A stretch of 64,000 nt of DNA from Rhizaria sp. SCN 62-66 (GCA_001724265.1 MEDY01000268.1:1-64000); one strand, 5' to 3'; shown: positions 707-62,607, numbered from the stretch's first letter. The notes: generated from the sequence alone by a model not told the origin. A program made the numbers and translations.

Positions 707-1791
707 TATTAGAGTGCGCATTGTGTCTAGCCAGCTGTTCTATCGCTCAGCTTTAGTGTGCAAAGTATGTTGGCTTTCTCCTGCGCTTATCTATTTCGTG
801 CTGTTGGCTCTCGTGAACATTGAGCCTGACATCTTTTTTGCCGTGACAAGATATTCAACTGAATCACAATTATCAATGGCATTGCCTGCTTTTCAAAAGC
901 TGTTAATAGAGTCGATCATGCGACAATTTTAGAGCATTTTTTTCATCGACTTTTGTTCTAAGCGTAACAATCTTTGTGTGTCAAGTACATGTACCGTACG
1001 TACCTGTATATGAATTTACTCATCTACCCTCCAGCGCATTTAGTCGACATACTAGTATTCGTCTGGGAGAAAAGCTTTCAAAAGCGGTTAAATCCCTGTT
1101 ATGTTTATGAAATACAGCGTTAGCAGTGAAACACTACGTATAATCTCTTGGATAGTTTATTCCCTCATACTTAGCACACATGGAACACATCGAACGGTAA
1201 AGTCGATCAGAATTCGTAATTGTGTAGGATAGAGCTATAGGTATGCATTTTTTGTCATACTTCACCGAAAAAATATATAGCTTTAAAACAAATTTGTTCA
1301 TAATTGAACGTAAAAATGTGCTTTCAGTGTTTTGATGGACTGACAGTCAACATTTGGAAACCAAAATTGAGGAAACCAAAATTGATTCTATTGGGATCTC
1401 TCCCAAATCAGTGGGATGCGTACGTGTCACTCAGCGTACAGTACGATATGATTCTTCTCCAGTCCGGGGGCCATCATGTTCAGGCAACAAAACAGTATAT
1501 TCAAATCAGCATCGCGGCGGAGTACATAAATCTTGTTACTCACTCGCGTTCGTCTAATTAACGATCTGTACGAGTCTTTGACAATTGGGCCGTGGCCTGT
1601 AGCAACAGATTCGCGCCATATTGCATTACTTACATGGGATTACGAGTTAATTAGTATAATTATTGGTGCTACACGAGTATTCAGCGAACTCGCTTGGGAT
1701 CACAATACGGAGTAGCGGGAGCAGTGCGCCGCCAAAAGATTGGCAGCAGAAGTGGCATCAGTTCAGCGCATTGGTGGTGACTGAACGGCCC

Positions 1792-3481
1792 TCACACGGT
1801 GTAGACAACCTTCTGGTAGAGGCCGCCAAAGAAGAGCTCCTTGGTGCGGCCTGTAATGCGCGCGGCATCGACTGGCGCAATGAAGGCGTCGATCTCGTGC
1901 TCCCACAGGTCGTCCGCGAATGGCTCCAGGTGCTTGTTGACTGGGAGGAAATGCGAGGGGGCAGACGGTTCGACAGGATTGAACAAGAGCAGAGAAGGGA
2001 GAGAATGAGCGAGATAGCACAAGGACAAACATCGTTAGTTGAAAACACGTCAACAACCAATAGCAAAGCCACACATATACAAGATGAGGGAATGCTTGAA
2101 CAGATTTCGTCGAAAAACAGCGGGTTGTCCCTTAGGAGTCAAGACATACCAAGACGCATGATAGGCTTAACCGGGTTCACACTGCTGGGCTAGTGGTAGT
2201 CAACAAAGACAAGCTTGGCGCCCGGCTGTGCGACGCGGAAGGCCTCGGAGATGATGCGGCGGCGCACGTCCTCGGGCACCTCGTGCATCAGGAAGAAGGA
2301 CAGCACGAACCCGAACTCGCGGTCGCTGGCGAGGAAAACGAAGGCAAAGAGGCACAAAAACAGTGGCGTTTGACAAAAAAATCAAATAAAATTAGCCACA
2401 GTACCAAAAGAAGCTATTTCAAGCAAGAGAGTAGTCAGATAACCAAATCAGACGCGAGTCAATCAAGTGATAGAGCTGCATGGTACGAAACAGGTATGGC
2501 AGCATTCAAAAACATCGCACAATTGATACGGTAATGCGGCGCTCGCCGCGCGTGCATAACACCCGTCTCGCGCACGTACCCGTAGCAGCTCATGTTAACT
2601 GCATCACCCTGGCGCAGCGTGAACCGACGCGCGTCCTTAACCGTCGCAGAATTGGCGCCGCTGCCACCGCTGCTGCCGCTGCTGCTGCTGCTGCTGCTGG
2701 TGTAAGCGCGATCCATAAAGATCTTGCTCGTCTCTGCCTCAGCCGCCGTCGCTGCCGCCGCAGTGGCGGCGGGCGCGGCGAGCGGGGCCCGCGCGTGCTC
2801 TGCGTCAACCTTGCGCGCGACGATGTCGAGCTGCACGGTCGAGATGTCGACGATCTCCAGCCGCGCGCCGGGCTCGAGCGCGGAGAAGAGGGCGGGCGAC
2901 ACGCTGCCGTACGCGCATGCAATCTGCAGACAGTCCCCGTTTACCGCGGGCGCGGCAGTACCGGTCTTGGTAGCGGCGGCGTTTTTGGCCGCGTCGACGT
3001 GGGCGCGGTACTCGGCGACGGCGGCGTCGCGCAGGCGGTCATAGTTGCCCCAGAGGATCATGTTGACAACAAAAGGGTGATCAAAAACCTTGGGCGACCA
3101 GGGCTGCAGGTAGGCCCACCAGTAGACGCGCTTCATGTAGTCGGGCATGGCCGCCACGGGTGCGAAAGCCGGGTCAGCCAGCGGCGATGCGAAGTGCTCG
3201 AACGGCGTCGCCGGCATCGGGATAGACGAGGATGCCTTCGCCAGCGAGAGAAGTGGCGGCACGGCCGTCGCAGACAACGACGCGGCCGCGGAAGGGACGC
3301 CCGCGTGAGAGGCGGTCGCTGCGGGCGCGGCGGCGGCGGCGGGCGCGGCGGCAGCGGCAGCGAAGGCTGTGCGTGGGACACTGGCGACGCGCAGAGGAGC
3401 CACAGACAGTGCAGATGAGCTGCGCAGAGGCACAGCGCGCGCTAGACTGCCTAAAAGACGCCCCAAACCACGGCTCGCCAT
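1792..3481 (-). CDS. rquA: Rhodoquinone biosynthesis protein RquA with predicted mitochondrial presequence; 3 exons (3481-2580, 2325-2150, 1940-1792), about 408 aa, in-frame TAG at 2190-2192
   Basis: RquA-type motifs PDYMKRVYWWAY, VFDHPFVVNMILWGNY, LQIACAYG, FFLMHEVPED, VFVDYH*P, LEPFADDLW and GGLYQKVV. Splice phases join correctly (GG|C, G|TC). Arg/Ser/Ala/Leu-rich N-terminus without acidic residues. Ends in TGA. Confidence 0.9.
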
Positions 3482-3940
3482 GAGTCTATCTACAACAGTG
3501 AAGTGATAAAGAGGTAGACGGACAAATGCAAGTCAGTTGTGAAGACGCTGATGTTACTAGAGCGTATCTTCAGGAGTAGATATCACATGAGAAACAGACT
3601 TATATTACATAAAAAAATGTTAAGCAAAATATAAAAGCCAGGATGAAGTAGAATACGAAGATTGATTCGCTATTCACTGTCAGAGGACGCCACGCAACAA
3701 AGCAATTGGTCGACAATACGTCACCCTCCTCTGTCGCGACTGCAGTCCCCCTGTTTCCGCCAAGAAGGTGTGACCAGGAGGGTCAGGAAAAAGTAGAATC
3801 TGTGAAACAAATTGGTGTATTGTTGTTGTTGATCGTTTACAGTGTATTGCCAGCAAGGCCGTGGCCATCTAAACTTATTCACGACAGATTTAGCGCATAT
3901 ACTGCGATATTCCTGATTTGCGGCGCGGTTGTTTGTGTGC

Positions 3941-4522: not shown

Positions 4523-4983
4523 GGTGTGGCGTGCGATCGAGGCTTTGATTTAAATCCCTTTACAAATATAGCGCAGGTGAAAACGCAATGGAAACGCGCA
4601 AAGTGGCGAAATTACAATTGGCGAAGACAATCTCCCACAAATCAACCGACAAAATCAGCCCGCGGACCCAGCTGCTGCGTCCAGCAACTCGGCCTTTTTT
4701 CGGAACTGCTTCGGCAGACTGGCTGGACACCAACAGCAACCCTGCCTTTGGACGTCTCTAAGTCAATATATAGTCCGTCATTGAATATGTGACACATGCT
4801 TTCGAATTTAACATCACATCTATTTGCTACTCTGGAAATTGAGCTGTTTGGCATACTAATCCTGCAACATTGAAGGGCTTAGAACTGACGGCCGTTTTTC
4901 CCCCTTCCTCTCTTCTCTCTCGGCCTTTCCTTTTCTCCTTACAGACTCTTCAAAAAGCTTCCTCAACCATTTTCGGCGCGCCA

Positions 4984-7900
4984 ATGTTCCATCTTGGCGC
5001 CGCGGCGCGCGACATGGTGATGGTGCACGAGCAGATGACGATCTGGCAGCTTAAGCTGCGAATCCAGGACCGCGACGGATACGTGGCGCAGGAGTTCGAG
5101 CTGCACCGCCAGCTCTCCTCCACCTCCTCAGTCTCGACTTCTTCCGCGCTGCCGTCGTCCTCGCGCGGCCACGGGGCCGCGGCGAGCGAGCGGTTTACGA
5201 CTGGCTCGCTGACCGTGGTGTCTGTGATGGTGCACAACGACCAGACGCTGCGCGAACTTGGTATCACCGCCGAAACCCCTGAGCCGCTCTACATCGAGCT
5301 CATCCGTCCCCCTGTTGACGACACCATGCACGGCTCCGGCGCCGCGAGTGGCGCCGGAAGTGGCGGCGCGGGGCACGCGCGCAGGGACTCGCTGCAGTTC
5401 GCGGGACAACCATCGCAGCTTGGACAGTCTGGACAGTCTGGACAATCGCAGTCTCAGTCGCAGCGTTTGCAGGCGCAGTCGTCGCCGTCGCAGTTGTCGC
5501 AGGATCAGCTGCTCGAGGTGTACGGCGCGCGCTTTGACGAGAGCTCTGTGCCGCCGGACCAGCTTTTCCCGCTGCTCGTCACGCTCGCGCGCGAAGGCGA
5601 CATCACGCGCACCGCACTCGTGCACACACCTGCACTCACACACAGCGCGCACAACGCTGCGGGCGGCGGGGCCGACTACAGTCCGCCGGGCTCGGCCGCG
5701 TCCGGCGCCGCGGGGGCGGTCCGCAGGCTGCCCAACGGGCTCTCGAACGCCTCCGCCTCCGCAGGCAACAACGGCAACGGCGGCGGCAATGCCTCAGGCC
5801 AACAACAACAACAACAAAAACAACAACAACACCAACAGCAGGCGTTTCTGACTGCGTCTGCGGCGGACCCGTACGCGTCGCTGGCCGTGGTATCCGGCCA
5901 CTACACGCTTGTTGGCGTCGACGGCACGCCCTTGCTCGCCGCTCTCGCCACCCCCGGTGGCAGCGGCGGCTCTGGCGGCGCTGGCGGCAACGCGGGCGGC
6001 GTCGACTACGAGGCCGTGCTCGCGCGCTCCCGCAGCCGCGCCGCCGCCGAGCGAAGGACTGCCACATCATCTGCAGCTTACCACGGCGCCGGCGGTGGTG
6101 CGGGCGACGGCGAGCCATTGCCGCGCATGTCGCCCGCGCTCAGCGGCGTCAGCGGCTCTAGTGAAGGGCCGGGCAGCAGCTCGCGCCTCGCCTCCACGGC
6201 CCTCGCACCCGCCGTAGCCCCCGCCGTCGTAGCCGCCGGCGTGCCGCCTTACGGCGCAGGCGTGCTCGCGCCCTCATTGCGCGCTTCGACAGGCTCCAAC
6301 GCCAGCGCAAGCTCTGCTGTTGCTGATGCTGCTGCTGCTGCTGCGTCATCAAACTCTAGCTCTAGTGCGAGCGCCGCCGTCGCCGCCCGCCGCGCGACCG
6401 CCTCACCCGCCGCTCACACCACAGGCGCTCCCGCTAGTGCTCACACAGGCGCTGGCGCTGCGATGGGCGGCGGCTCTGCGCTGGACGCGGCGCTGGCCGC
6501 GCTGGGCGCCGCGGCAGCCGTGGCGGAGGTGGCGCAGCTGGAGCACCGACAGGCGCACCACTACGCACGCGTGCACTCCGAGGCGCTCGACGGGTACCGG
6601 CTGCTGGCCGCGGGCGACGCCGCAGTGCCCGAGCACGTGCACCGCGTGGTGCTCCTCGCGCAGACGCCCAAACTCGCCACCACGGGCCCCGTCGGCGATC
6701 TGGCGCTCTTCTCCAGTCTGTCGTTCCTCGACGTGAGCGGCAACGCGCTGCCGCTGGCGCCGCTGGGCACGCTGCCCGCGCTCGAGCATCTAATGCTCGC
6801 CTGCAACGGGCTACGCGGGGCGGACCTGGTGCCCATCCCGGCCTCGGAGCCCGGCGGCGCACAGGAGCACGACGACAACTACAACGCCGCCGCCGCCGTC
6901 GCCGCGCTCGCAGTCAGGAGCGGCGGCGGAGGCGCGCACACGGGCGCGGGCGCCTTCGCTGATGTCGCCGCAGACAGTGGCGGCGCGGCGGTGTCGGGCC
7001 GCGCCCGCCGCGCGCTGCGGCGCCAGCGGCGGCTGGTTCGACGTCGCGCCGCCGCGGCCGCGCTGGCGGAGGTGCGCGCACGCGTCGTCGCCCGCTCCGG
7101 CGGCACGTCCGAGGAGGTCGCCGCTGCTGCGGTGCCGGATCCCGTCTCCGGCGACGACATCGACCTCGACGCAGAAGCAGCAGCGCAAGGAACCGGGGGT
7201 GGCGGCGGCGTGCGCGGTACGCCTGGGCACGCGTTCGACGGGGACATGTCGCTCTACGGCGACTCGTCCACCGACTCTGAGCCTGAGGGCGACGCCGCTG
7301 GCGCGGGCGCTGGCGGCCCCGACGCGGGCGGCCTGAAGAAGGCCTAGAGCGTCGACGTGTCGGCCGCCGGTGCCACTGACGGCAGCGGCGGCGACGGGTT
7401 CGGACCGGAGGGCTCTGCGATTGCGGGTTCGGCGTCGGGCGCGGCCGGTCTGGGCGTCGCGGGCGCGGGCGGCGAGGAGGCCGGCGCCGCGCACTACGCG
7501 CTCTTCAGCTCCGACATCCGCCGCGATGAGCTCGAGCAGGCCCGCTCTGCCGCCGCGGCGGCCGCGGCCGCCGCGCGCGCCAAAGCCGGCGGCAATAACG
7601 ATGGCGACGGCGACGCGGAGGACGAGGCGGACGAGGAAGCGGTGGCGCTGCTGGCCGCGCGTAACGCGGCGGCGGCGGCGGTGCGGCGGCCCCGCGCGGC
7701 GCGGCGCGAGCGTTTGCACCGCGGGCGCGCGCGGCTCGCGGCGGCAGCGCTCTCGCTGTCGGCCGCGGCGAGCGCCGAGGAGGTCTGGGCCGTCACGCGC
7801 GACATCCGCGCCTCGGCCGAGCCCGCGGCGCTCGAGGCCGCGCTGCGCCTTGGCTGGCCTGACGTCGTGGCCGCGCGCACCGCGCACGGCGAGGGACTAT

Positions 7901-10353
7901 CGGTGCCCGCGCGCGGCGACGCGGGCGCCGAGGCGCTGCGGCAGCTGCGTGAGCTGCAGCGCGCAGAGGCGTTTCTTGCGGCATACCCACCCGCGACGCT
8001 CGCGCCCATGGTCGGCTTCGGCGCTTTGCTCTCGCTCGACCTCAGCTACAACGCGCTGCCGCCCGCGGCCGTGCTGCAGCTCGCAGCGCTGCCGCGTCTC
8101 CAGGAACTCAGGCTTGCCGGCAACGACTTGCGCTTTCTCCCGGCGGATTTAAGCGCTTTCCGCGCGCTTCGCAGGCTGTCATTGCGCCGGAACCTGCTCG
8201 GCGGCGCCTCGCTGCTCCAGTCAAACAACACCGGCGGCAGCAAGAGCGGCAGCTTCAGCGCCAGCGCGAGCGGCGCGCCCGCCGAGAGCGAGTCCGCGGT
8301 GTGGGAGCCCGACGCTGTGCAGCTGCAGCTGGCACTGTACCACTCGCTGGCGTCGCTGCCGGCGCTGGAAGAGCTCGACTTGAGCGAGAACAACCTCACT
8401 CTGTTCCCGTCGCCTGACGCGCTTGAGGCCTTCGCGCGCCGCGGGCGCCAGTCTGCGCTGACGTCAGCGCCCGCTGTGGCGCGCTTCGTGACGGCCGCGC
8501 TGGGCGCCGCGGCGGGCGCGGCCGTGCAGCAGCGCTTCGTGGCGAACCGGCGCGCACGCGAGGCTCGCCGCGCCGGTGCCGCGGGGCTGCCGCTCAAGGA
8601 GCCCTGGGAAGAGGCGCTGCCGCCCCACGCGTCCGGCGCAGAACGGCTACGGGCGAAGCGCGAGTACGAGCGCGACCAGCTCCGCAGCCACACCGCGGCC
8701 GCAAATGCTAACGCTAGCGCCAGCGGCAACGCTAGCGTTAAGGCGAGCATTCTCGTCCTGCGCTCTGCCGGGTCGGTGCTGGCGAGCACTGCCGAGGGAG
8801 TTGAGGAGGAGGAGAACAGCGGCAACTGCGGCGCCACGGCTGCTGAGGTGGACATGGGCATGCCCGTGTTCCCGCGGCTGAGCGTGCTGAACCTGTCGAT
8901 CAACCACATTGCGAGCGAGCACGCGCTCGTCGGACTGGGTGTACTGCGCGCGCTGCGCTGGGTCGACGTGCGCGGCAATGTCTTTAACGCCGCCATTAAC
9001 ACGCAGCTGCACTCGCGCCTCCCGCCGCTCGCCGTGGCATTTCCCGTGCTCGCGCGCTTCGTCGTGCAGCAGGCCGGTGCGTCACTCGTAGTGGCCAACC
9101 CGCGGCCCGCGCCCGCGCCCGGACAGGAGAACGACCACATCATGGTCCCCGGCCGCACATCGCGCACAGCGGCGCTGCCCGCGCAGTCGCGATCGCAGCA
9201 ACAGCAGCTGGTGCACGACGACTGGCTGGCGGCAGATCCCGGCTCCGCCCCGCTGACCGCCCCCGGCACTGCGGGCAGACGCGGGGGTTCCGCCGCCTCT
9301 GCCGCGGCGGCTCCAGCGGCGCCTGAAAACGCGCGGTGGACCGTGCCGGCGCAGTCCCGCGTGGGCACCACCGGCACCGTCACCGTCAGTTCTCACCCCA
9401 ACAACACTGGCGTTTTGACCAACTATGACTCGGGCCGCACCAGCGGCGTCGTCGCGGGCTCCGGCGCTGCGCACACCAAGGGGGGCGCGAGCGGCGCTGC
9501 GGATGAGCTGCGGTACATGCTGGCCGCGGGCAGCGCGGACGTGTCGGGCTTGCTGGCGGGCTCGCCCTACGCCGCAGTGCTGGTGCAAGCCGACGCCGAG
9601 GACGAGCAGCGCTGGCGCATGCAGCGCGCGGGCGCTCTACCGCCGCAGCCGCGCGGGGCGGTCACCACCGCGCAGCTGCGCGCCTCGCTGCGCCCGCACG
9701 TTCCGCCCGCCGTGCGCGGCGCGCGCGCGGCCGAGCGCCATCAGCGCCAGCAGCACAAGCAGCTGCAGCAGCAACGGCAACGGCAGCAGCAGCGGGGGTT
9801 GGCGACTGCGGGTGAGAACGCGCTCGCATTTACGCCCGCTGCCGGCCGCGCCGAGGCCACTGCGGCCGCCGTGGCCGCGCGTGCCGCCACCACGGGCCGC
9901 TTTGCTAACTCGGCGTCGATGTCGGCATCGACGGCGTCGCTGGGCTCTGGAGCGGGCCGCGCAGCGTTGTACGCGCGTGTTGACGCCGCCGTGGACTCGC
10001 TCGACGCCGCGCTGCGCAGTGCGGACACGGCGCAGGGCTACGTGGGCGGCAACGCGGCCGCCGCGGCGGTGCTCCCGCAGCACACGCAGACCGTCCGTGC
10101 GCGCGCCCGCGGCGTTGGAAGTGACCACGGTCACGGACAGCATGGCCACAGCCGGCTTGAGGCGCTGGGCCTGCGCGAGTCGGTTCAGTGTGCGGGCGGG
10201 GACCCGGCGGACAGCGGCGTGTTCGTGTCGCGGCAGATGGCGCGCGCGGAGGAACGCCGCGAGAAGGAGAAGCGCGCACACGACGTCGAGATCCTGCTGC
10301 GCACGGTCAATACGGCGCTCGCAGAGAGCCTCTGGGGACAGGACGCGCAGTGA
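4984..10353 (+). CDS. Large leucine-rich-repeat protein (possibly XRRA1-like) with a possible N-terminal ubiquitin-like segment; about 1789 aa if the TAG at 7345-7347 is read through
   Basis: ORFs 4870-7347 and 7357-10353 share a frame and are separated only by TAG AGC GTC GAC. LRR units lie on both sides (LSFLDVSGNAL, LEHLMLACNGL; LLSLDLSYNAL, LQELRLAGNDL, LEELDLSENNL, LSVLNLSINHI). The start codon is uncertain and an upstream exon is possible. Confidence 0.7.
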
Positions 10354-20956: not shown

Positions 20957-22525
20957 TTAGAGGCGGGCGTTCTTGGGCATGTACTTCATGGTCTGCTTCA
21001 TGCCGAGGTCGAGCATGATCTCCTCAGAGCCTCCGAGGATAGCGGCGTACTTGACGGCGCGCTGGAAGCGCTCGATGACCTGGCCCATGCCGGTGCGCGT
21101 GATGGCGCGACCGCCGAAGACCTGGCACGCCTTCTCGGAGATGTCGAGCGCGACGCGCGTGGCCTGGTACTTGCACAGCGCGATGGGGCCCGCGAGGTAG
21201 CGCGTCTGCTCCGCGTAAGTCATCTTGCACATCTGGTACGTGATGTTCTCGGTCCAATTGTACACGGACTCGAGCTGCGCGACCATCTGGCCCAGCTTCT
21301 CGCGGATCACGGGCTGCGCGATGAGCGGGCGGCCGAAGACGATGCGCTGATGTGCCCACTTGAGGCACTCCTCGACAACAAGGCGCGCGCCGCGCAGCAC
21401 GCCGACGATGATCATCCAGCGCTCGTGGTTGAAGTTGGCCATGATGCACTTGAAGCCCTCGTTCTCCTTGCCGAGCAGGTTCTCGACGGGCACCTTGACG
21501 TTGTCGAAGGTGACGAACGCGGTGCCGGCAGAGGGCGAGTAGGACGTGATGATCTTCTCGGTGGCGAGGCCCTCGGAGCGCTCAATCATGAGCAGCGAGA
21601 CACCCTTGGCGCCGGCCTCGGCGGGGCCGGTGCGCACGGCAGTGACGAAGTAGTCGGCAAACGAGCCGTTGGTGATCCACTTCTTGGTGCCGTTGACGAT
21701 GTAGAACTTGCCACAGGGGGACTTGGTGGCCGTGGTGCGGATGGCGGCGACGTCGGAGCCAGCAAAGGCCTCGGAGATGGCGAGGCAGATGCGCTTGTCA
21801 CCGGCGAGCACGGGGGGGACGAACTTGGCGATCGTCTCGGGGGAGCCGAAGTGGATGACGGGGGGCAGACCGATAACAAGACCGGCGCCCAGACCGTCGG
21901 TGGCGCCGGGGCAGCCCAGCTTGGCGATCTCCTCGTGCACGATGAGCTCGTGGAAGAAGGAGAAGTCCTTGGGCGCGATGCCGCCGGGGAGGCCGTTGGG
22001 GGTGAGGGTGAGCGCGGGGCCGGGGCCGATGCGGCCGGCCCAAATACCGGCCTGGCCGAGCTTCTGGAAGAGCTCCAGCGAGGGCTCCTTGCCTGACTCC
22101 TCGAGCTGGAAGACCTGCTGGCCGATGATCTCCTCGAGCGTCTTACGCACGGCGGCGCGGAAGGCGACGTGGGACTCGGTGAAGTAGGCAGACTTCATGC
22201 CCATCCAGGCGGAGGACTCGGAGAAAGGAACGCCCGAGAAGGACGCGGGGGCAGGCCAGAGGTTGGCCGCGGCGGCCTTCTCCTCGCCGGCGATGACGCC
22301 GACGACGAGGCGCTCGTACTTGCGGAGCACGTCGACGCGGTGCATGGCGAGAAACTCCTTGGTGGCGTCCTTGCCGGCGAGCTCGACGAGCACGTGGCGG
22401 CCACCAGGGTGGAACTTGGCGAACGTCTTGAGCTGGTACACCTTGGCGTTGATGATCACGAGCAGGTCCTCCTTGCTCGCGGCGGCAACCTCCGCGCGGG
22501 TATAGGTCTTAAGCGGCTGACTCAT
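20957..22525 (-). CDS. Acyl-CoA dehydrogenase with N-terminal cytochrome b5-like heme-binding domain, 522 aa, C-terminal -ARL
   Basis: b5 motif FAKFHPGG...AGKDATKEF. ACAD motifs CLAISEAFAGSDV, YIVNGTKKWITNG, FNHERW, CQVFGGRA and ILGGSEEIM. Intronless, ends in TAA. Confidence 0.92.
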   Translation of the reverse strand: MSQPLKTYTRAEVAAASKEDLLVIINAKVYQLKTFAKFHPGGRHVLVELAGKDATKEFLAMHRVDVLRKYERLVVGVIAGEEKAAAANLWPAPASFSGVPFSESSAWMGMKSAYFTESHVAFRAAVRKTLEEIIGQQVFQLEESGKEPSLELFQKLGQAGIWAGRIGPGPALTLTPNGLPGGIAPKDFSFFHELIVHEEIAKLGCPGATDGLGAGLVIGLPPVIHFGSPETIAKFVPPVLAGDKRICLAISEAFAGSDVAAIRTTATKSPCGKFYIVNGTKKWITNGSFADYFVTAVRTGPAEAGAKGVSLLMIERSEGLATEKIITSYSPSAGTAFVTFDNVKVPVENLLGKENEGFKCIMANFNHERWMIIVGVLRGARLVVEECLKWAHQRIVFGRPLIAQPVIREKLGQMVAQLESVYNWTENITYQMCKMTYAEQTRYLAGPIALCKYQATRVALDISEKACQVFGGRAITRTGMGQVIERFQRAVKYAAILGGSEEIMLDLGMKQTMKYMPKNARL

Positions 22526-24577
22526 ACTACAAGTTCAAACGAGAGCAGAAAAGCGGGCGAATACCGGGCAAGAGTAAGTGTAATGGAGTTGTGAGAAACA
22601 TAAATGCACACATATAGATCATGAATTGTGATTGCAACTAGTAGATATTGAAACCTATGCTGAAATAATTGACTGCAGCAACAATTCTGGCAGTTCAAGC
22701 CCCCCTTCCAGCAATCGGAGGCACCAAGCAAAATATTCGGTCTGTTTGTTTGTACATATGCCGGGTTGTAAGAAGCAAGATGAAGTTGGAGTTATGTAAA
22801 CTAGTGCCCAGAGCGTCTGGATTCAGCGCGCTAACAACCGATGAACGTTCTCACCGTCTGATATTAAGGTGTGAAAGTGGCCGGCCTGCAAGGTTAGCGC
22901 GTCAACCGACGCCCGGTGAGTGTTTAGCGCTCCATGCACGTTAATAGCTGTCGAGCAGACTGGCACCAGTGAAAATAAAGAGAAACAACAATCGTTTATC
23001 GAATGTAACACCTTCCATGCACGCCGACGATCTCTGGCTGCTACAGTCGCTCCTGCAAGAGGGCGGCGACGGGAGCCTGTCGGTGGGCTTGTTGCCCCTC
23101 CGACGAGCCCAAAGTTAAGCCGCCTAAGCCCCCGGTACACACGCTTTATCTCAGTAGTACTAATGCCTTCAGGTTCAAATTTGTAGTATAACATTGTACT
23201 TAATATTTAAATTCGTAATCTCGACGTGATATTTGTCATTGTGGCTATCTGTGATGAGATATCTCGTAAATGCAAGCGTGGTGTCTCCTTAGAAGATTCA
23301 CCACAAACGCGATTAGACGTGCTTCTGACGTGACCCTTTAGTAGATTACGAAAATTACAACACTTCCACAATTTTGACGTACATTCCATTGATATACTTT
23401 TAAATAGTGCCGTTGGAGCTTGGATCCACTTCTACACACTGGTTCAAAAACAACAATATATCCACTGTCTGTTCGCACCCGCTGCGTTATCACAATGTTT
23501 CGATAAACACAGAAAGAATACTGTGTTCAGTGCCTGAAAAGTAGTTTCGCACATGATATATAATATTATGTATGTTTATAGGAAAACCCAATCCATCTTG
23601 ACTGCACTTCGTGTCGCTGCGGTTGCGACCACAAACGAAACTCAGGTAAACAAATATAAGTATAGAGACATGTATTCAAGTTAGTTTGAAAGCCCAATCG
23701 GTGTGGCAATATTTCCCTTGCAAGATTAGTCGATCAATCTTAGTAGTAATTTCATCCTGTGCATATTCAAGTTTGTATCACGCTCTATTTCAATTTGAGC
23801 CGAGCATGCAGGCCATGACTTGTAACACTCCTCCGTCGTCGGCGAACACGTTCCATAGCATACTGTACACATACGTCGCGCGTTATAGCATGTTTAAGGC
23901 ATTTTTTCAAACCGTTGCAACAATAGCTGATGCACCAGCTCTCTTATTCCTGGTCTGTGGCAAGCCTCGACATCAGAGTGACAGCTTAAACCACCTTGAA
24001 CACTCGCGTCCTGTTGCCGTGTCGTATCATGACATATGAATGAATAGATTTTGAACCGAGTATGATTTTTTCATTTGTTCTATCTTGTGCTTTAGTTGCA
24101 CGAGGGAAAATCTAGGTTTTTGGTGCCTCCAACATGAATATGGACACCTGTACAACACCTTATCGAGGCGATCTCACCCAGGTCTTTGCAGCATTTGCAA
24201 GTGATGACATATACCAGCGCTGCTAACAAAATAGTTATTTAGCGAGCGCAGTATCGGCGTATCTTGGCCGATGAGTCGATTACTTGGACATTCACATCAC
24301 TGTTGATATATACGTTGCATTCGTGGTTAAAAGTCTTGGCACTAGTTCGAACATAAATCCAATCTCACCACAAACAGCAAAAAATCATGACGTGAAGACC
24401 ACGCGAAAAGGAGAAAGGGTTCGATGTCGTATTCGCGTAATACTTCGTTGAAACATACGTAAACCAATTCATTATCGAATTATTTGTTGTGACACCTTAC
24501 ATCACAAAATAACGCTTCTTATTGCTGTGAGCTCACTCTGGTAACTACATTTTATTAACGGCTCTTGCTCCAGAGTG

Positions 24578-36152: not shown

Positions 36153-36665
36153 GCAGCACTGTTAAACCAGCGCGTGCAGAGCGAAGGGGTGGAAGTGAGG
36201 TGCGCAGCAGCGAAAGAGGGTGAGCGCACCGAAGAAATTTACACGGCTAGTGACACATTCAAGGTGCATTATTATTGAATTAATAGAATTATGTTCGTAT
36301 AGTAACGTATCATAGCAATAACTTGCTGCTGTACGTTTGAGCCGCAGAGATATTGACGTCGCTATGTCGGGCGCCTTCACGCATCAGGCAGTCCGCGAAG
36401 ACTGTGGGCGAGACGAATGGCTTGACTCGAGCAAACAGAAAGTTAGGATATCTTAACAGTCCGAACGTCAGAAGCCACAGAGGTAGTTTTTTCGGAGTTT
36501 AATTGTATGTTTGTACCTGGATTTCTTATTATATCACTCCATCTTCTCTCTAGCCCCCTCTTTCCATCACTAGCTCATCACGCTTCGACCGCTCTCAACA
36601 GCTCCATTCCAAGTTGACCTGCAGCAACCCAAGCTGTTGACTCTCGACAGCTGCGTCGCTCAGTC

Positions 36666-39600
36666 ATGCCTCGCATCGTTTTTCACGCGCGGCTCCTGGC
36701 TTTGACAGCGGGCGCAGCTCTTCTGACACTCATCTCCGCTCCCTGGGCTTTCGTGACTGCCACCCATGTAGCTGGCTCAAGCTCGACGACCGCTGCCGCC
36801 GCGCCTATTGGTCTCGAGGGTGAGTCATTTCACGAGAGCGTCGTGCTTGACCCGCTCCCCGACCACAACACGCTTACCTTGTTCCAGTTTACCATGACGC
36901 ACCCCGTCTCCGACCGTAGCAGTGCAGGTACCAGTGCTTCTTCTTCTTCTTCTTCGTCCTCGTCTTACTCCGCGTTCCCGCGCGCGCTGGGCGAGCTGCT
37001 GGATGCGGCGGGGCCCGCATACGTGCGCCTGACGCTCACACAGGGCCGTTGGCACTCCGACCGCTGGGGACCGCGCTACGTCTCGAGCTACAACCCCGCG
37101 CCTCCAGTCACAGGCAACAGCAGCAATGCGACGGAGCAGAGGGACTCGGTCCTGCCGGCGCCGCTGGACGGGCTTGACACGCGTCCCGCCCCGCCGGGCG
37201 CGGTGCTCGACGTTGCGTTCCCTCCTTTGTTCACCCCCAGTAACAGCAGCAGTGCGGGAGCGCAGCAGAGTGCGCGCAACGGCGGTGATCTGCGGCCGCA
37301 GATGACGGCACGCGAGGGCCAGGCGTACGCCGCGCTCACGGGCGGACTCGCGGGGCTGTTTTGCACCTCGCTGACTGTGCTGTCCACTGGTAAAGATGTC
37401 GCTGCTGTCCTCACGCCCTCTGCAGCCGCCCACGGTCACTCTGCTGCTCACAGTCACTCTGCTCACGGTCATTCGCCGGCGTGGGTGTTCCGCGCGAGTC
37501 TCCCGACCGAGGCCGTGTGCACCGAGAACCTCTCCGCGGCGACGCGTCTGCTGCCGTGCCGCGCGCACTCCGGACTGGCTGCGCTTGTCAAGGCCGCGAA
37601 CGTGCTCGCCGCAAACAGCTATCTCTCCATCGCACTCACGGCCTCGCGCCAGCAGGGCTTCTCGCACCGGCAGGACTCGCAACGCCAGCAGGCGGCGCTG
37701 TCGCTTTGGCGTGTGAGTGTGACGGTGGCCGCGGTCGTGCCCACGGTTACGCTCGTGTCGCCCACGCTCGGCTACACGCCCGCTGGCGGGCTCGCGAAAG
37801 CCGCTGCGGCCACGGCCGGCTCCGACGGCTCCGTCATCTCCCTCCTCGAAGCCTGGTCCCGCACCACCCGCGCTAGCGGCAGCAAAGGCGCGAACTCCGC
37901 GTCGTTTGCAGTGGAGCGCTGCCCCGTTGCGGCGGCGTCGGCCGTGTGGTTCCACCTCAACCCGTGGCTAGTGGCCCACGCGGCTGCGCGCCGCGACGGA
38001 TACGTCGCGCTGCCCGCCGCGCCCACCGCGGCCTACATTACTGCGGGCGCAGGTGCGGACGTCAGCGCTGACGTCAGCAAGGCGAGCTTGACGTGGGGCG
38101 TTCCCTTGCACACTCTGCCGTTCAGCGCTCTGCAGTCCGGCGCTGGCGTCATCAGTGCGCAGCAGTCGATCACGCTGTCGATGGCCCGCGGCAGCGGCGG
38201 CGGCCTTGTGATCGGCCCTCCGCAGACGGCACCAGCGGCTGCGAGCGGCATTAACGCGGTGGCAGTGTGCTCGCTGTGGGCGCAGTACGATCTCCTTACG
38301 CACGCAAACAACGACAACAGCAGCGCCGCTGCTGCGGGGGTTGGTGTTCCTGTGTTCGCTGTCAACCACCGCGCCGTCCGCGTCGCGCCCCCCATGGCCA
38401 CCGCGGCCGTCGTTGCGCGCGCCGCCGCTCTCCCGGGCACCGCCGGCTCTAGCGCAAGCACTAGCGCAGGCGCCAACACAGGCGCGGTCGCGGACGCTGG
38501 CTTGACTGTGGGCGGCGACAATATCAACATCGCTGTGGAGGCCTCGAAGCGGCTTAACTTTGACTCGCAACTGCAGCACCAGGGCCCGCCCGTGGTGGCG
38601 TCGGCCGCGGTTACGGGGACGAGTCTGCGCCACAGCAGCCTCAAAATCCGCTTTGAGACCGACGCCCGCGCCAGTCAGTACTTGGGCGCCGCGGGCAGTG
38701 CGACCGCGGAAGTCGACGGCGGGTTTGTGGTACAGGCGACAGTGGTGCTGCCCTGGTGGGTGGGCGCCGTGTTCACGCACGAGATCTCCACTTCCGTCTC
38801 TGTCGCCACGGCGTCCACCGCGAAGCCAGCTTCTGTTGCTTCTGATGCTGCTGGTGCTGCTGCTGCGGTCAAGACAGCGCCGGCTGTGTCCGAGCAGCAG
38901 CACCGCGGTGGCGTGGCGTTGTACTACCACAACCCGTTCTTGCGCGCGCTGACGGTCCGCGACCGCGCGCACAGCGCGGCGTGGCGCGCGGCGGCGACGT
39001 TCCTGTCCGAGGAGAGCGGGACGCCACCCAACACCGCGCTGGTGCGCCAGTTGGGCCGCTCGCGTCCCGCCGCCGCCGAGGCCGTGCCAGTCAACTGGGC
39101 AGAGCTGTTGGTGAGCAAGAAAAACGAGCAGCGCCGCAGCGATGAGGCTGACCAGCTGCGCACCGCGCGCCGCGTCGCGCTACACGAGCAACAACAACAG
39201 TAGCAGCAGCAGCAGCGACAACAACAACAGGAAAAGAAGAAGGGCGGTGCAGGCAGCTCAAGCGACGCGGCTCGTGGGACGCTGGGCCGGATTGGCTCGC
39301 TAGATACGGTCGCAGAGAGCCAGGTCGTCGCCGTGTGGATCCAGCGGCCCGAGCCCGCGCCCGTGTTGTCGAGTCTGCTCGCGCGCGCCGTACTCGCACT
39401 GCTGCCCGAGAGCAATCTCAGCGCGCTAAGTACCCCCTTAGACAGCGCGCGCGCGCCGACCGTGGTGCACATCTTCGCGACCGTGCCCTTCGTCTCCCAG
39501 CGCATTCTGGCGGCTGCCGACGACGACAACAGCATTGGCGCCACTGTGCGCGCGGCAGTGGAGGTCGAGGTGCCGTTCGAGAAGGCACTGCTGACGTTGG

Positions 39601-40271
39601 ACGCGTATCCGCCCGACGTTTCGCGCGGTTTCGACCTGCCGCCAGTCGCAACTGCAGTGCTGGGCACGTTCGCACTCGGGCCCTTGGCTGCTTCGCCGTT
39701 CACGGCCGCGTCCGCGAACGAGGGCTTCGACCAGGACGCCCTGGTGGTCGCCGCGGCCGCGCGCGTGCCTGGCGCGTGGCAACGCTACGCGTTCGCGCCC
39801 TTTGCGGGCGACGTTGTGGAGAGCTTCGTGGGCGGGCTGATCGTGCAGCTGCCGTATCCGGACGCGAGCATGCCATTTAACGCCATCGCAGTTGTGTGCA
39901 CCGTCATCGCCTTCTTCTTCGGCTCGCTCTTCAACCTGCTGTACAACTCTGACGACGACTTCGTGCTGTTGCAGCGCAGCAACAAGCTCATCCGCAAATG
40001 CGCCAAGCGGCCTGACACGGCCGCCGCAGCCGCGACTGCGACTGGTGGCTGTGAGAGCGGCGGCGAGAGTGACGGCGACGGCGCCTGTGAGCCGGACAAA
40101 GACGAGGCGGTGGGTGTGGCCATCAGTGAGGCAGCGCTTGCGGCACGCCGGACCGCGGCTGCCGCGACAGCCGCAGTCACCGGGTCCGCAGTCGCCGGGG
40201 CTGTGCCCAGCGCCGCCGAGGACAACGTCAAAGTGGCGGTGGAGGCTGTCTCAAAGACTGTGGATGCTTGA
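36666..40271 (+). CDS. PIGT: GPI transamidase component PIG-T/Gpi16, about 1201 aa, in-frame TAG at 39201-39203
   Basis: Signal peptide, FPRALGE, LTLTQGRW, LAGLFCTSL and EAVCTENL...LLPC lie before the TAG. YPPDVSRGFDL and LPYPDASMPFNAIAVVCTVIAFFFGSLFNLL (membrane anchor) lie after it in the same frame. Ends in TGA. Confidence 0.88.
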
Positions 40272-43200
40272 ACTGCGCTGAGTTAAGGACGCTTGTGTGA
40301 GCGCGTAGATCGCTTCAAATGTGAAAGGGTCTTTTCTTGTTCAAAATCGTAATAATTTGGCATCTTCGGTCCATATTTTATGTTTACTACTTATGGGGCC
40401 TTCAAAGCATGATCGAGAGTATATCATATGATATCAATACAATGAAACAACTGAAAGAAATTCGGAATTTTGTGGCGGGATGGCGCTGTATTGAGGCATA
40501 TTAGAACGGAATAGAGTTACCTAAACGTGTTCGCGACGCGTCAACGTGAAACAGCGGCCATCTGGGTTCTGAAAGTGCAACTTCAGAACGAAGCGGAATT
40601 TTCGTGGTGATACACGCAGCTGTCAACATGACGAGTACCTAGCGTGCGAATTGAGTGACTGCATATCAAGATAAGAGTGACATTTAAACAGTGACAGGAC
40701 ATTTGATTTGACAAACATTGGGAAAACGCGATCCCGCGACAGAACCCTGCGGACAGAGATTTCGCTTATATCATAAACCACCAGCAAGAAAGAGCTTAAG
40801 GGCACATGACAGCGAAAAGTGAGGGTCCGCAGAGACATCGACGTAGGGAAAGGCAGAGTGCGGGAGCAGGGCTAGTTGGCAACCACAGCCACAGAAACGT
40901 GCGGACGCGCTGGGGTGGGTTAGCAAGGAGGCATAAAAGAACAAACAAGCAACAAATCAAAGGAATGAAGACTAAACACGTCTATCTTTGATTTTGCTAT
41001 TGACAATACATAAACACTTTAAAACAATTCTGCAAATGTGTGTTGATGTTTTGAGCTAGTTAAACGAGACTAATGTTAGTGAAACAGGAGTACTATGATT
41101 AAGGATGTTGGTGTCAACCAGTCGACAGAATGATGTTAGAGCTATTATGCTCACATGAACATGAAAAATCGACATACTTGACATGAGAAATGTTGTTGCT
41201 GAGTGAGCAAAACTTGTGTCACAAAAAAATAAAAAAAACTGTTGAAGCGAACGCACGGCGATTCCTTGCTATTGATGCAGCATGCATGCAACAATGGCGT
41301 CACTGTGAGAGTGCGAGGGCAGGGTGTCACAAATCAAAAGTACAGAGAAGAATGGACTAACATAGAGAGAATGAATTCAAGAATTGGTTACAACCAGGCA
41401 CATAAGAGACGTGTCAAGTTGCAAACGACTCGATGCAAACTTGAGTTCAAGTTCAACCTCCTTGTGAAGCTTGAACTTTAAAGAGCAGTTAGCACAGAGG
41501 CAGAAGAAAGGGATGTGGGGGGGGAGAGTCACGCAGGGGTAACAGTGCCTTAACAGTTGATCACAATAGCATCATTAAAGACTGTGCTACAACAGCGAAT
41601 GAATATCATTAACATATCACTAACAAACAAGTTAACAAGAACAAGCATAAAACGATACATGACAAACACAAACACCAAAAAGAGAAAAGTAAAGTGCATC
41701 ATAAACAACACAGCAAAGTGAATAAAGAATACCAACAAGACAACGTATCTTTTTCATGTGATGCATGTATCAACTGTGACACGCGACGAACGCGACTCGC
41801 AGCATACTTGCATGTACACACAGAGAGACGGAGACGCGGAGAGAGATGTGCAGAGGCAAACATATGAGCCAAAGCACTGAAACCACGCAGTCAAAGATAT
41901 CAGGAGGAATTGCATCTACGGGCACAAAAACACCTACACAGAGAAAATTAAAGAGATCTCACAACACGATGGACGATGCAATAATACAACGTGTAATACG
42001 ACAGGTAAATTAAGCACAGAAGTGCGAAGCAGTAGGCGCAAGAAACAGTGAAAAAGCAACACAGAAGGGGTGACATGAAACATCACACAATGAGACACAT
42101 ATTCAAATTAAAAAAATACATCACATCACAACATACTACATGACTAAAACATCGCCTCATGTACGTGTGAGAGGAGCTATCTGCTCCCGCCACTCACACG
42201 TAAAACGAGGCTTACTGTGGGAGCAGCAGCCGCGATAGGGCAGGGAGATGACTGAAAATAACTCAGCACCGCGAGTCTGGACGCGGTCAAGTGACAAAAG
42301 CACCCGAGCGCACGCGAAAGCACGGTTACCGGTGTCAGTGACAGCGAGAACAGCAACAATAACGCGTGCCTACAGCAGCAGTTGGAGTGGCAGCGGACTC
42401 AAGCAAGGCGCATAAGAGAAAGGAACAGTCAGCTCAAGAAAGTGAGCACATATTTGCACAGGAAAGCACACCGGTCGTCCGGTTGAAACAAGCCAGGCAG
42501 TTGCTTCACCCCAATCGTATTGCCGACCGTGGAAATCAAGTGAACGCAACATGCATGTGAATCGGTGCGACGTATTGGGAAGAAAAAAATGTTGCTGAAA
42601 ATGAGAACAATATCGACAAACATAAAAACACATACCAGTGCGCCGCGCGACAACAATAATCGCGGACCAGGCGTGAGATATATCAGATACGCGTCACAAA
42701 TACACTGTTGAAAGCCAGGGCCGCAGGGAATCACAACCTGCGGGTGCCGACTTCTCACAAAGCAAGAGAAAAAAATGTCCAATAGACGTGAGGATGACAC
42801 GGGCGTGGCGCACATCCATCGTGGAGGATTCAACTTGCTGAGTAACTTAACACGCAAAAGACTGACAAACAATAGTCAGTCTTGATGATATCTTGGGATG
42901 ACACAACTCTGTAAGACAACAAAGCAACGATGACTATGATGACGAGGGATGGTGTTACATTCAGGGCGCGCAGTAGAGATCAGGGTTAGCAGCAGCGTCG
43001 GCGAACGAAGAGCTCTCAGAATACAGGAAGAATCATGAGTTGTTGTGTGACGGCAAGGAACAACACATAACAAACATCGGGGGTCTCACAAATTACACAG
43101 GATGTGTGGACAGCAACTGTACAAATGTACATAGATTCACAAGGACGACCAGGAACAGCAGGTGCATCTACGAGTGAAGTGTACGTGGAGGCGAGGAAAC

Positions 43201-51400: not shown

Positions 51401-52608
51401 TTTGTACGAATGTCAATCTTTTCACAAAAGTATGGGCTGCCAAAAGTGGGAGTTTGAAGACGAATATTGACGCCGGATATGAACGTTTTGCAATCGTGAC
51501 GAAGCAACCCCGACCAACAGTTTTGAGATCTGACGAGCACCAACACATATTCAAAGATATTCAGCGCCCTATAACGTAGTTAAGAAAGTTTGTTCAGGAT
51601 TACTTTATTTGCGTATGCATGATTTACGAATACTTGCATAATTTTTCTTAAAATAACGAATTTACGACAAGAAGTGCCATTTTATGCCGGACTACCTCGT
51701 TTTTTCACTCCACCGCGCAAACACATGTGTTGATTAATGCGATTGTTTGGGCCACATTTATATTTTTGAACAATTTCATAGAACTTTTGCAATTTAAAAA
51801 CATTCGTAATATGTAAAACCTTGCGTAATTTTAGTTGGCAGTGTATATTTGTACTATCAGATAGAAAAATCACTCCCCCTCCAAAGCCTATGAGGTGTTT
51901 GACCTATGGTATCTGCAGCTGCCAGTCATACGGACTTCGCAATAAGAGGAGCTGGTGCTCCCCACTCACCCGACTACACCGACATGCGTGGGATCGAACT
52001 TCTGCGTTGTCAAACAGGGACTCCATCACACCAAACACAGCATCCGTCACGGGTTACACATGGTGTATTAATACACTTGTTGTCGCCACGTGTTTGCTGA
52101 GCTTGGTACTCGCGCTCTTCGACGCCTTCGCGATGCTCGTGGCGATGCTCGCGTTTCTCAGCCTCGCGTAGTCGATCTACAACGCCGCCTTGCTCTGGCC
52201 CTCGGTGCCGCATTGAACCTGACCTGATCAGGGAGGGTAGGCATTGGCACCTACGACAGATGACATACAAAATCTTACACATAAGCATGAGAACAAACGA
52301 AGAATCCGATTTAAACGATGTATTTTGCGCCAGAAAGTATCGCAAAAATTCTCGACATCTCTCAAGTTGGTCCCACCACGAGCGCAACTCAGACCACCGA
52401 ATTGATAACAGGGTAAGTTGCGTGAAACACCGCTGGACTGCGTCGCCGTCGCCAAATGGGGACGACATCTTCGTAAAGCATCGTGTTAATGTCGAAAAAA
52501 ACGTTGTGTTTATATTAATCCTATGATTATGATATAAAATTTTATGGAAAATTTACGTCATTTCCAATCCGCACATCGTTACGGTGGTAAGCAGAGCACT
52601 ACACAGCC

Positions 52609-60364: not shown

Positions 60365-62607
60365 TCACTGGTAGAACGCGCTGCGCGCAGGCGCCTTAAT
60401 GCCCGCGACCCGGCGCGGCGGCGCGCGCTCCAAGTACGCCAGAGTGTCGTACCACTCGCACTTGGCCGCGGCCTCTTCCGTCATTCCACGAGCACTGCCG
60501 TTCTCGCTGTTGCTATCACTGGCAGCCTTGCAAGTGCGTGCTGCAATGCGGGCGCTGCGGGCGACGTAGGGCAGCATGGGTAGCCCGTCGGGCCCCAGTT
60601 CCTCCTTGCCCTCCGCACTCGCACTCGCCTTCGGACTGGCACTGGCGTTACATTCAGCGCTGTTCGTGACACAACGCGCCTTGTTGACCGCGACGCCGTC
60701 GCGCATGCCAATGCTGACGCAGTAGTGCCCCTGAATGAGGTGCCACTCCTCGAACTCGTCGAAGATCTCGATCCGCTCCGTCCGCTGCAGCACCCCCCGC
60801 TCGATGTAGTAGCCGTACACGTCGTTCATGCTCCACGCGCCGTGCCGCGCGAAGCCCAGCTCGAGGAAGCGTCGCCGCTGCGCCTTGAGGTCCGGGTAGG
60901 CAGGCAGCCCAAGCAGCGGGCAGCCGCGCGCCGCGAGGTTGGCCATCATGGTGCGCCCGAACGGGTCGTTGGGGTGGATCTGTTCGTATGTGGCCAGCAC
61001 CACGGGCCCCGTAAACGCGCCAACGACGCCCGAGCCCAGGACCGTGGCGGTGACTGGCGCGCCGTTGCTGTTGCTGGTGTCGGCGCTGGCCACGGTCGTC
61101 GTCTTGAGCACCGTCTCCGTCTCCGCGTCAGCAGCTGCGCTGTTGCTGTTGCTGTTGCTGTTGTCGGTCTCGCTCGCGCTCGCAGCCGCCGCAGCCGCTG
61201 CTGCAGCGGGAGTGGGCAGGGAGGCGACGTACGACAGCACGCCGGCGCTATCGTGCGGCTTCATGTACACGAGCACACACTCGGACAGAAACAGCGTCGG
61301 AGCCGCGAAGTTAAGCCGCGTGTGCTGAGTCAACAAAGCGTGGAGCGCGGGGATGTCGCGCAAGTCGGCGCCCACGAGCGCAAAGTCGCGCCAGCGGCCG
61401 CGCGCCGCGCCGAGCTCAGGCAACTGCGACTATGACGGTGTCGAGGAGGAGGACGACGACGACGACGATGACGAGGCAGATCCGCTACTGCATGAGTCGG
61501 CGTATGCAATGTTGAAGCAGTTGGGGTTGGGCGCGGCGAGGTGTGTCTGGAGCTCAGGCGTGGCGGCGATGATCGCGAGCTTCTGCGCCACAGACGACTC
61601 GAAGTCGATCTCGACGTAGTAGTCTGGGGTCTGCCGGGGGTCACCGGTGGCCTTGAGGCGCCAGTAGGTGGTGTCAAAGCCCGCGCCCAGAGACACAACC
61701 TGAGAAGTCAAACAAAACAACACAACATAGCAGAACAGAAAATGGTTGTGAGAAGCGAGATGTGAGCATGTGAGAGTACAACTTATCTGATGGATGAGAA
61801 GCACTTAAACACGTGCAAGATATAAACGGTCAGTGAATGGTCAAGGTTTCGCGCTTAACGCGGGCGGCGTACCTGTGCAGGAAGCCCGTGCGCGCGCGAG
61901 ACGGCGACGAACTCCTGGAGCAGCTGGTCGAGCGCCTGCACGCGGGAGAAGTACCCGCGGTTGATGAGCGGGGACCGCCGCACGAAGGCTGGCGGGAGAA
62001 GTGTCGCGGGCGCGGGCGCGGGGGCCGGCGCGGGCACAGTGGTGGCCGCGGATGAGGAGGACGACGCCGTGGCGGCGGAGCCGCCCAGGGGAGCGGGCTG
62101 GACCGGGGCGGGCTGCGCCGGGGCAGCATCAGTCTCGGGAGCGGCAGCAGAGGCAGCGGCGGGGGTTGGGGTCTGAGGTGCGCGGGGGCGGGTGTTGGGC
62201 AGCGCCGGGTGGGCAAAAAAGGTGATAAAGTCGTCCTTGAAGTAGCCCAGCTGCGCCGCGGACCTGTGGCGGGACAGCGAAACAGCGGAGCGCGTGTGAC
62301 GAGATGAGCGAAGAAGCAAGGAAAGATGACGAATTGCGGCGTGACAAGAGGACAGAGAGTGAGCGCGGCCGAGGAGATATATATAAAATAGGCAAGATAA
62401 CCGATGTTGACAAAAATGATGGCTCGGCGGACATTGAAACGGTCGGCGCAGTGTGCAAGGGGAGGATTGCAAGAAGAGGGATGATGCGACTAGAGGATTG
62501 ACATACAGCTTTGAGAGAATAGCATCGTTGGCGGTCTTGCGGACCTCGAGGCCAGCATTGACACCGGCAGCGGCGTCCTCCAAACCCATGGGGCCGGTGG
62601 CTTGCAT
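60365..62607 (-). CDS. LCMT1: Leucine carboxyl methyltransferase (LCMT1/Ppm1); 3 exons (62607-62507, 62263-61873, 61699-60365), about 608 aa, in-frame TAG at 61430-61432
   Basis: TANDAILSKLSAAQLGYFKDDF, RRSPLINRGYFSRV, QVVSLGAGFDT and YVEIDF lie before the TAG. ALVGADLRD, PTLFLSECVLVYM, YEQIHPNDPFG and EIFDEFEEWHLIQGHYC lie after it. Ends in TGA. Confidence 0.9.

Follow-up and report, generated by a model that had tools for sequence, protein, structure and literature searches.

An in-frame TAG in a PIG-T gene and UAG as a probable rare glutamate codon in a cercozoan grouping with Sainouroidea

Introduction

When stop codons are reassigned, UAA and UAG are nearly always affected as a pair. A conserved gene read through a lone TAG raises the question of what this codon means to the cell. 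Such a gene is found in the window, a stretch of 64,000 nucleotides of Rhizaria sp. SCN 62-66 (GCA_001724265.1, MEDY01000268.1:1-64000), where a frame for PIG-T (Gpi16), a subunit of the GPI transamidase, continues through a TAG lying inside a run of glutamine codons. From the sequence of this locus it had been proposed that the TAG is a synonymous variant of CAG, and therefore that UAG would stand for Gln rather than Leu. The reading favoured here, to which we assign a probability of roughly three in four, is that the organism is an uncultured sainouroid cercozoan whose nuclear code uses UAG as a rare Glu codon and both UAA and UGA as stops.

The TAG of the PIG-T gene

A 1217-codon frame at 36618-40271 (+) is interrupted by one stop only, the TAG at 39201-39203 (Table 1), and the codons of the original prediction were indeed found at 39186-39230, which reads GAG CAA CAA CAA CAG TAG CAG CAG CAG CAG CGA CAA CAA CAA CAG. 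The two halves of the Gpi16 profile (PF04113) were each matched alone, collinear and in the same frame, on either side of the TAG, and the whole gene reached 194.2 bits against a cut-off of 27, with its C-terminal motif and anchor present. As had been stated, a stop at this codon would cut off the PD.SMP.N motif together with the anchor, since PDASMPFN starts 3′ of the TAG, at 39858, and the anchor begins within the second Pfam stretch.

Table 1. Coordinates of the features discussed (positions of the window unless a contig is given)
Feature	Position	Strand	Remark
PIG-T/Gpi16 GPI transamidase subunit gene	36666..40271	+	ATG to TGA in a single frame that includes the TAG
Sense TAG of the PIG-T frame, Glu being most likely	39201..39203	+	only stop in the frame
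Poly-Gln low-complexity run in lineage-specific PIG-T insert	39186..39230	+	uninformative on the residue
Best Gpi16 Pfam stretch 5′ of the TAG, profile 114-216	37317..37655	+	125.4 bits
Gpi16 Pfam stretch 3′ of the TAG, profile 459-545	39552..39944	+	77.6 bits; PDASMPFN and start of hydrophobic anchor
In-frame TAG, RquA (rhodoquinone synthesis) gene	2190..2192	-	Glu in the 3 closest homologues
In-frame TAG, leucine-rich-repeat protein gene	7345..7347	+	frame 4843-10353
In-frame TAG, leucine carboxyl methyltransferase gene	61430..61432	-	within Pfam LCM stretch, Ser-rich insert
In-frame TAG, eRF1 stop-recognition domain	G000:C63:103463-103465	-	gene ends in TAA
tRNA, anticodon CUA, tRNA-Glu-type body	G000:C84:76008-76080	-	ARAGORN and Rfam, 58 bits

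A proposed check of the base at 39201 returned T and no C. One contig (X3, which may be the source itself) covers 38500-40300, and another from a different study (X4) covers 39056-39822, both with 0 differences; the base is thus real and an assembly error is ruled out. Moreover, an 845-residue fragment ending at this TAG occurs in 6 contigs from JGI/IMG, Logan and ENA, whose samples are perhaps not independent. Pieces of a polyA RNA run (X5) lie close by, at 38736-39055 and 39206-39449, leaving 39201 uncovered, and a DNA run (X6) did not bridge it.

Under the standard code, the TAG could be the 3′ acceptor of a 93-base intron, or such sites could be nonsense alleles or pseudogenes. A donor-like GTGAGC at 39111 would give an intron of that length which preserves the frame, 11 seemingly in-domain TAGs elsewhere in the genome are intron acceptors, and the RNA cover is absent over 39056-39205, as over several other stretches. 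However, no splice joint is listed at 39201 in the RNA run, and the 60 bases 5′ of it (T 0.08, GC 0.67, 4 AGs) match none of the values that the same measure gives for those 11 true acceptors (T 0.33-0.60, GC 0.23-0.45, 0-1 AG), so that the sequence context disfavours splicing at this site. The standard code as such is very improbable, given that conserved protein flanks the TAG on both sides in eRF1, UBE2J, kinases and RquA, that TAA and TGA never continue as TAG does, and that a tRNA with a CUA anticodon exists.

The poly-glutamine context

Searching the genome for stop-like codons within runs of CAR codons gave 110 matches; among the 100 listed, a count by eye yielded 61 TAG, 25 TAA, 11 TGG and 3 TGA. 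This excess of TAG over TAA, a comparison suggested as a check on the Gln reading, is confounded by frame. In the best-scoring frame, the first 40 TAG sites were divided into 7 Gln, 25 Ser/Asn and 8 reverse-strand cases, and a strict threshold left 4 in the Gln frame, 19 in Ser/Asn frames, 2 on the reverse strand and 15 unclear. In-frame TAGs in CAR runs can be extrapolated to about 12, to be compared with 29 GAG, 19 AAG, 11 AAA and 6 GAA as non-synonymous interruptions of the same runs (reading frames unfiltered), and with some 430 windows for the synonymous CAA, extrapolated from 11 in about 885 kb. TAG in poly-Gln runs is therefore at the level of a non-synonymous interruption, and the proposal that the context makes it synonymous with CAG did not stand. 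Because only 7 of the 40 TAGs were in the Gln frame, the context fails to name the residue; in addition, CAG>TAG is a single transition that a low-complexity insert would tolerate whatever the residue, which deprives the run of force as evidence for UAG=Gln. The in-frame poly-Gln TAGs comprise the one at 39201, two further loci (L148 and L206) and those 7 sites. The counterpart, TAG in acidic runs, was found in none of 3 matches, with under one expected, so this pattern had no power.

TAG as a sense codon across the genome

The genome comprises 34.9 Mb in 714 contigs. Stops were surveyed in the window and in 220 records (979,894 bases with overlaps, about 0.9 Mb) picked around tRNAs and conserved families, a small and non-random sample, and each stop scored was preceded by 30 coding-like codons. 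Coding continued after 12 of 28 TAGs in this survey of about 0.9 Mb, and after 0 of 79 TAAs and 0 of 70 TGAs. Of the remaining 16 TAGs, inspection placed 6 in introns and showed 3 to be antisense or out of frame; another 6 were in frame with coding going on beyond them, and 1 was unclear. TAGs inside exons were found in the genes for eRF1, UBE2J, a DEAD helicase, a Ski2-like helicase, an ABCA transporter and RquA, as well as in four kinase domains and one kinase insert. That TAG is a sense codon, as originally proposed for PIG-T, was thus borne out both there and elsewhere in the genome, and we hold it with great confidence. Its use is very low, with 3 TAGs in 11,622 codons of 13 long frames of the window, where GAG occurs 385 and GAA 56 times (441 GAR), CAG 380 and CAA 74 times.

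Such rarity would also fit a codon of ambiguous meaning, one that ends some genes or terminates partly, with the tRNA suppressing termination efficiently at internal positions. This possibility is compatible with an inserted Glu and overlaps the favoured reading; the single-copy tRNA, the conservative nature of the change in eRF1 described below and the TAG in the eRF1 gene itself are likewise in its favour. Against it, in this small and non-random sample none of the 28 TAGs following coding-like sequence was clearly terminal, compared with 50 TAA and 47 TGA after a rough removal of donor-like cases, and we consider it decidedly unlikely.

Several searches were less productive. The raw number of Pfam matches with a lone TAG overstates the case, as 4 of the 9 among 142 kinase matches were splice acceptors; in total, 11 acceptor TAGs were excluded from the in-domain set. 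In the stretches of dynein heavy chain, the screen retained no TAG within an exon, and in the searches for WD40, ABC, myosin, SNF2 and Ras there was either no TAG among the matches listed or the listed TAGs were outside the set examined. Six-frame blastp comparisons against paralogues gave mostly antisense noise. Standard gene callers cut such proteins at the TAG, and the protein collection holds PIG-T, UBE2J and RquA fragments that end there; in protein clusters, 6 of 10 truncated fragments were on record, without read-through members.

Further in-frame TAGs were observed at eight loci that offer no usable columns of homologues (L137, L204, L143, L098, L128, L056, L069 and L106), two of them directly after acidic residues. 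A TAG at 52169-52171 (+) of the window, in a short GC-rich stretch coding for hydrophobic residues, may be a fifth in-frame site there.

Conserved columns and the identity of the residue

If UAG is sense, Glu is probably the amino acid, a preference in which we have good confidence. The column of the TAG in eRF1 holds E 101 and D 11 times among 120 homologues, with V once and 7 unscored; the Val belongs to the closest relative and counts against Glu. In UBE2J, the corresponding column (48 of 52 homologues) reads D 27, E 7, S 6, G 4, T 2, K 1 and Q 1, and the PDB matches, which came from one query, the other PDB queries giving nothing, have Asp or Ser. The three closest homologues of RquA (80, 75 and 71% identical) carry Glu at the TAG, and the column of the whole family (49 of 53 rows) is R 18, K 10, E 5, G 5, Q 5 and 6 others, so that Glu and Gln are equal across the family at 5 each of 49, which counts against Glu. 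Two kinase columns, examined in 39 paralogues, favour E over Q by 9 to 1 and 8 to 1, and two others, in 36 paralogues, do not discriminate (E 1, Q 1).

Profile scores give a complementary view. Nine residues were tried with the best family for each site, and the Pfam bits summed over 6 conserved sites were 464.6 for E, 463.2 for K, 462.9 for Q, 461.4 for D, 459.9 for S, 458.1 for A, 455.1 for Y, 452.3 for L and 450.9 for W. These sums exclude Leu, Trp and Tyr, and barely separate Glu, Lys and Gln, with Glu leading Gln by just 1.7 bits and Lys by 1.4. A meaning of Leu, as in the rhizarian exLh, which is likewise described as a sainouroid in the accessible text of its report (PMC5304391), can practically be set aside together with Tyr, Trp and Ser: their sums are below that of Glu by 12.3 (Leu), 13.7 (Trp), 9.5 (Tyr) and 4.7 (Ser) bits, the short variable loop of the CUA tRNA speaks against this reading, and neither conserved Leu columns under the TAG nor a Leu-type tRNA was found. 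The original choice of Gln over Leu was therefore half right, as Leu is excluded, but both the tRNA and the columns point to Glu instead of Gln.

The case for Gln, either through charging of the CUA tRNA by GlnRS or through a further undetected tRNA-Gln(CUA), draws on the in-frame TAGs in poly-Gln runs, on the narrow Pfam margin, on a ubiquitin-like domain (L231) whose TAG aligns to a Gln of the genome's own ubiquitin and counts against Glu, and on the precedent of UAG alone being reassigned to Gln in Iotanema, Hartmannula, Trochilia and Protocruzia, as the accessible text of one report has it (PMC11687900). We regard it as unlikely. The columns in eRF1, UBE2J and the close relatives of RquA are acidic, and a rough sum over four columns, the ubiquitin one included, gives Glu +5.7 and Gln -3.6 bits, with homologues that are not independent and eRF1 dominating; the poly-Gln TAGs are no commoner than non-synonymous interruptions, as shown above. 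Of the two traits of a UAG=Gln code, a CUA tRNA derived from tRNA-Gln and TAG at conserved Gln columns, neither was found beyond this one Gln-aligned site, and the only CUA tRNA found is of Glu type and least like the Gln tRNAs. Glu is thus better supported than Gln, because of the tRNA-Glu body of the CUA tRNA and the Glu/Asp columns.

A candidate tRNA for UAG

The CUA tRNA, one of 3 pattern matches and present as a single copy in the genome, has GC-rich genes on either side and a run of T after its end. Of two other tRNA patterns, one was too loose and one missed this tRNA. Over 73 positions it shares 47 with the organism's own tRNA-Glu(CTC), 40 with Glu(TTC), 39 with Asp, 33 with Gln(CTG) and 27 with Gln(TTG), and 50-54 with four bacterial tRNA-Glu genes; a looser, gapped alignment gives 48 for a Thr tRNA and 47 for a His tRNA, level with the ungapped 47 of Glu(CTC). 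Its first five acceptor pairs are those of both own tRNA-Glu genes, its D and T arms differ very little from those of bacterial tRNA-Glu, and its variable loop is short. We infer from these features that the tRNA would be charged as a Glu type. In the accessible text of one report, C36 is a determinant of GluRS in E. coli, where amber tRNAs are charged with Gln (PMC9976931), and the A36 of the CUA tRNA departs from this determinant, which counts against Glu charging.

Regarding the origin of this tRNA, among 30 of 130 matches listed from a phage collection 17 were tRNA-Glu, 2 Sup, 1 Phe, 1 other and 9 unannotated, with 0 Gln, and there was no match in viral contigs. cox1 was looked for in the assembly and none was found, so the comparison did not include a mitochondrial tRNA-Glu. 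Two bacterial MAG contigs in GTDB (L278 and L279) were seen to carry CUA tRNAs with a similar D arm, only 45-46 of 73 positions being alike. No UUA-anticodon tRNA occurred among 63 scored Rfam matches; of 3 UUA-like pattern matches, the 1 examined further was no tRNA.

The release factor and a proposed mechanism

The eRF1 of this genome (G000:C63) reads GSS in place of the GTS motif (T32S), where Thr is found in all 118 scored homologues, an 84%-identical relative included. Before ASNIKS it has Ser-Lys for Gly-Thr (G57S, T58K), a Lys in common with that relative, and L69 is kept. The TAG in its gene was also seen in a JGI contig, identical at 100% over 1626 bases, which may be the same sample. 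According to the accessible text of two reports, Thr32 bonds the third-position G of UAG, and it is Gly in Iotanema and intact in its standard-code relatives (PMC5304391, PMC9161772). T32S is conservative and retains the hydroxyl, which counts against a weakened recognition of UAG. A UAG within the gene for eRF1 could also give feedback on the level of this factor.

In the mechanism that we propose for UAG as Glu, the GluRS of the cell would charge the CUA tRNA through its Glu-type acceptor stem, and the CUA anticodon would pair with UAG, not with UAA. T32S may loosen the grip of eRF1 on the third-position G, so that the tRNA would win at UAG, perhaps with some residual termination. In PIG-T, the transition of CAG to TAG at 39201 would then have exchanged a Gln of the poly-Gln insert for a tolerated Glu and left the protein at full length.

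A more speculative version, which we put forward tentatively and with low confidence, is that the reassignment is at an early stage and that an acquired tRNA-Glu, of a type found in bacteria, phages or mitochondria, drives it. In the nucleus, the anticodon of this tRNA would have become CUA and its acceptor stem host-like, and the tRNA would compete with a mildly altered eRF1 (T32S); termination at the UAG in the eRF1 gene would limit the synthesis of eRF1 itself. The event would be a second, independent change of UAG only in Sainouroidea, to an amino acid other than that of exLh. As far as its accessible text goes, the literature gave no clear example of a transferred tRNA having brought about a reassignment in a eukaryote.

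Comparison with known codes

What follows relies on the accessible text of the cited reports. The nearest precedent is exLh, a sainouroid with UAG=Leu and UAA and UGA as stops (PMC5304391). It belongs to the same clade as our organism by the GRP94 tree described below, and in both UAG alone is reassigned. However, Leu is excluded here, and the eRF1 of exLh has L69A with intact motifs, whereas L69 is kept and T32S is found in the present one. Since UAG is reported still to serve as a stop in Guttulinopsis and in a gene of Rosculus (PMC5304391), the two events would appear to be independent.

Among ciliates and other groups, UAG=Gln with UAA as a stop has been described in Iotanema spirale, Hartmannula, Trochilia and Protocruzia (PMC5304391, PMC9161772, PMC11687900). 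These are also UAG-only changes, and in Iotanema Thr32 of eRF1 is changed too, to Gly, but the decoder of our organism is of Glu type and not derived from tRNA-Gln, and its use of TAG is very low compared with the widespread use in the phyllopharyngean report (PMC11687900). Oligohymenophorea sp. PL0344 has UAG=Glu and UAA=Lys (PMC10553269), and there, as we propose here, UAG is read as Glu by a CUA type of tRNA most similar to tRNA-Glu. In contrast, PL0344 has UAA as sense and ten CUA tRNA genes, 69-93% identical to its own tRNA-Glu, whereas in our case UAA is a stop, and the only CUA tRNA resembles bacterial tRNA-Glu more than the own Glu(CTC), with which it shares 64% identity. Peritrich ciliates and Blastocrithidia, with UAR=Glu (PMC11687900, PMC12153298), share Glu at UAG, but UAA is reassigned as well. 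Finally, Scotinosphaera (UAG=Ser) and the TARA phyllopharyngean MAGs (UAG=Leu; PMC11687900) are UAG-only codes that keep the UAA stop, as here, with another amino acid and in other lineages.

In the accessible literature, which covers few of the subscription journals, neither a code with UAG=Glu that keeps the UAA and UGA stops nor a second sainouroid code was found, and by term search the accessible text of the Rosculus vilicus genome paper and of a 2026 rhizarian preprint does not mention the genetic code. The combination seems not to have been described. If the favoured reading is true, a code that assigns Glu to UAG and retains the other two stops would call for a translation table of its own, a new one, and a second UAG-only change in one small rhizarian clade would make Sainouroidea a test of predisposition to such changes. 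In this case a candidate tRNA and a change in eRF1 are both known, unlike in exLh and Iotanema when they were described, which makes the mechanism testable. Moreover, TAG is used very little and only one gene encodes the tRNA, which may reflect an early stage and would bear on the codon-capture and ambiguous-intermediate models.

The organism and other features of its genome

In a tree of GRP94 with 22 rows, the sequence falls in an 8-row clade with Guttulinopsis vulgaris, with a support of 100/100 in this single gene and with one named sainouroid, and with 119 rows the grouping has a local support of 100. By this one gene, the organism groups with Sainouroidea (Cercozoa, Rhizaria). Its ubiquitin begins with Met-Ser-Met-Gln, as a one-residue rhizarian insertion would give, although seen without an assembled monomer junction; such an insertion in rhizarian polyubiquitin is recorded in the accessible text of a previous report (PMC6133090). 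Cytosolic RPL1 was not recovered over the region of the cercozoan diagnostic insertion. The best-matching runs were labelled as bioreactor or wastewater metagenomes, a habitat reading that leaves out runs with small word shares, and a metagenome scan for relatives found the same organism only. Dynein heavy-chain matches, 18 on 10 contigs, suggest a flagellate.

The ubiquitin sequences (L224, L229-L233) are unusually divergent, and their repeats look collapsed in the assembly. One of them (L231, G000:C681:2500-3800) joins a Peptidase_S74 chaperone domain to a ubiquitin that has diverged from the host copy; it contains an in-frame TAG, and this fusion is possibly of viral origin. A very divergent SSU rRNA gene (L034, G000:C706) of 4445 bases with four group I introns is a candidate for this organism; its first insert contains a His/Cys-rich stretch that, we presume, recalls a homing endonuclease.

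Within the window, the intron-containing RquA gene, at about 1700-3532 (-), was recognized by NCBIfam NF038261, which matches its first frame and also close homologues, and it carries the most informative TAG. Its presence suggests a rhodoquinone-based respiration at low oxygen. Also in the window, a gene at 20957-22534 (-) encodes a cytochrome b5 domain fused to an acyl-CoA dehydrogenase.
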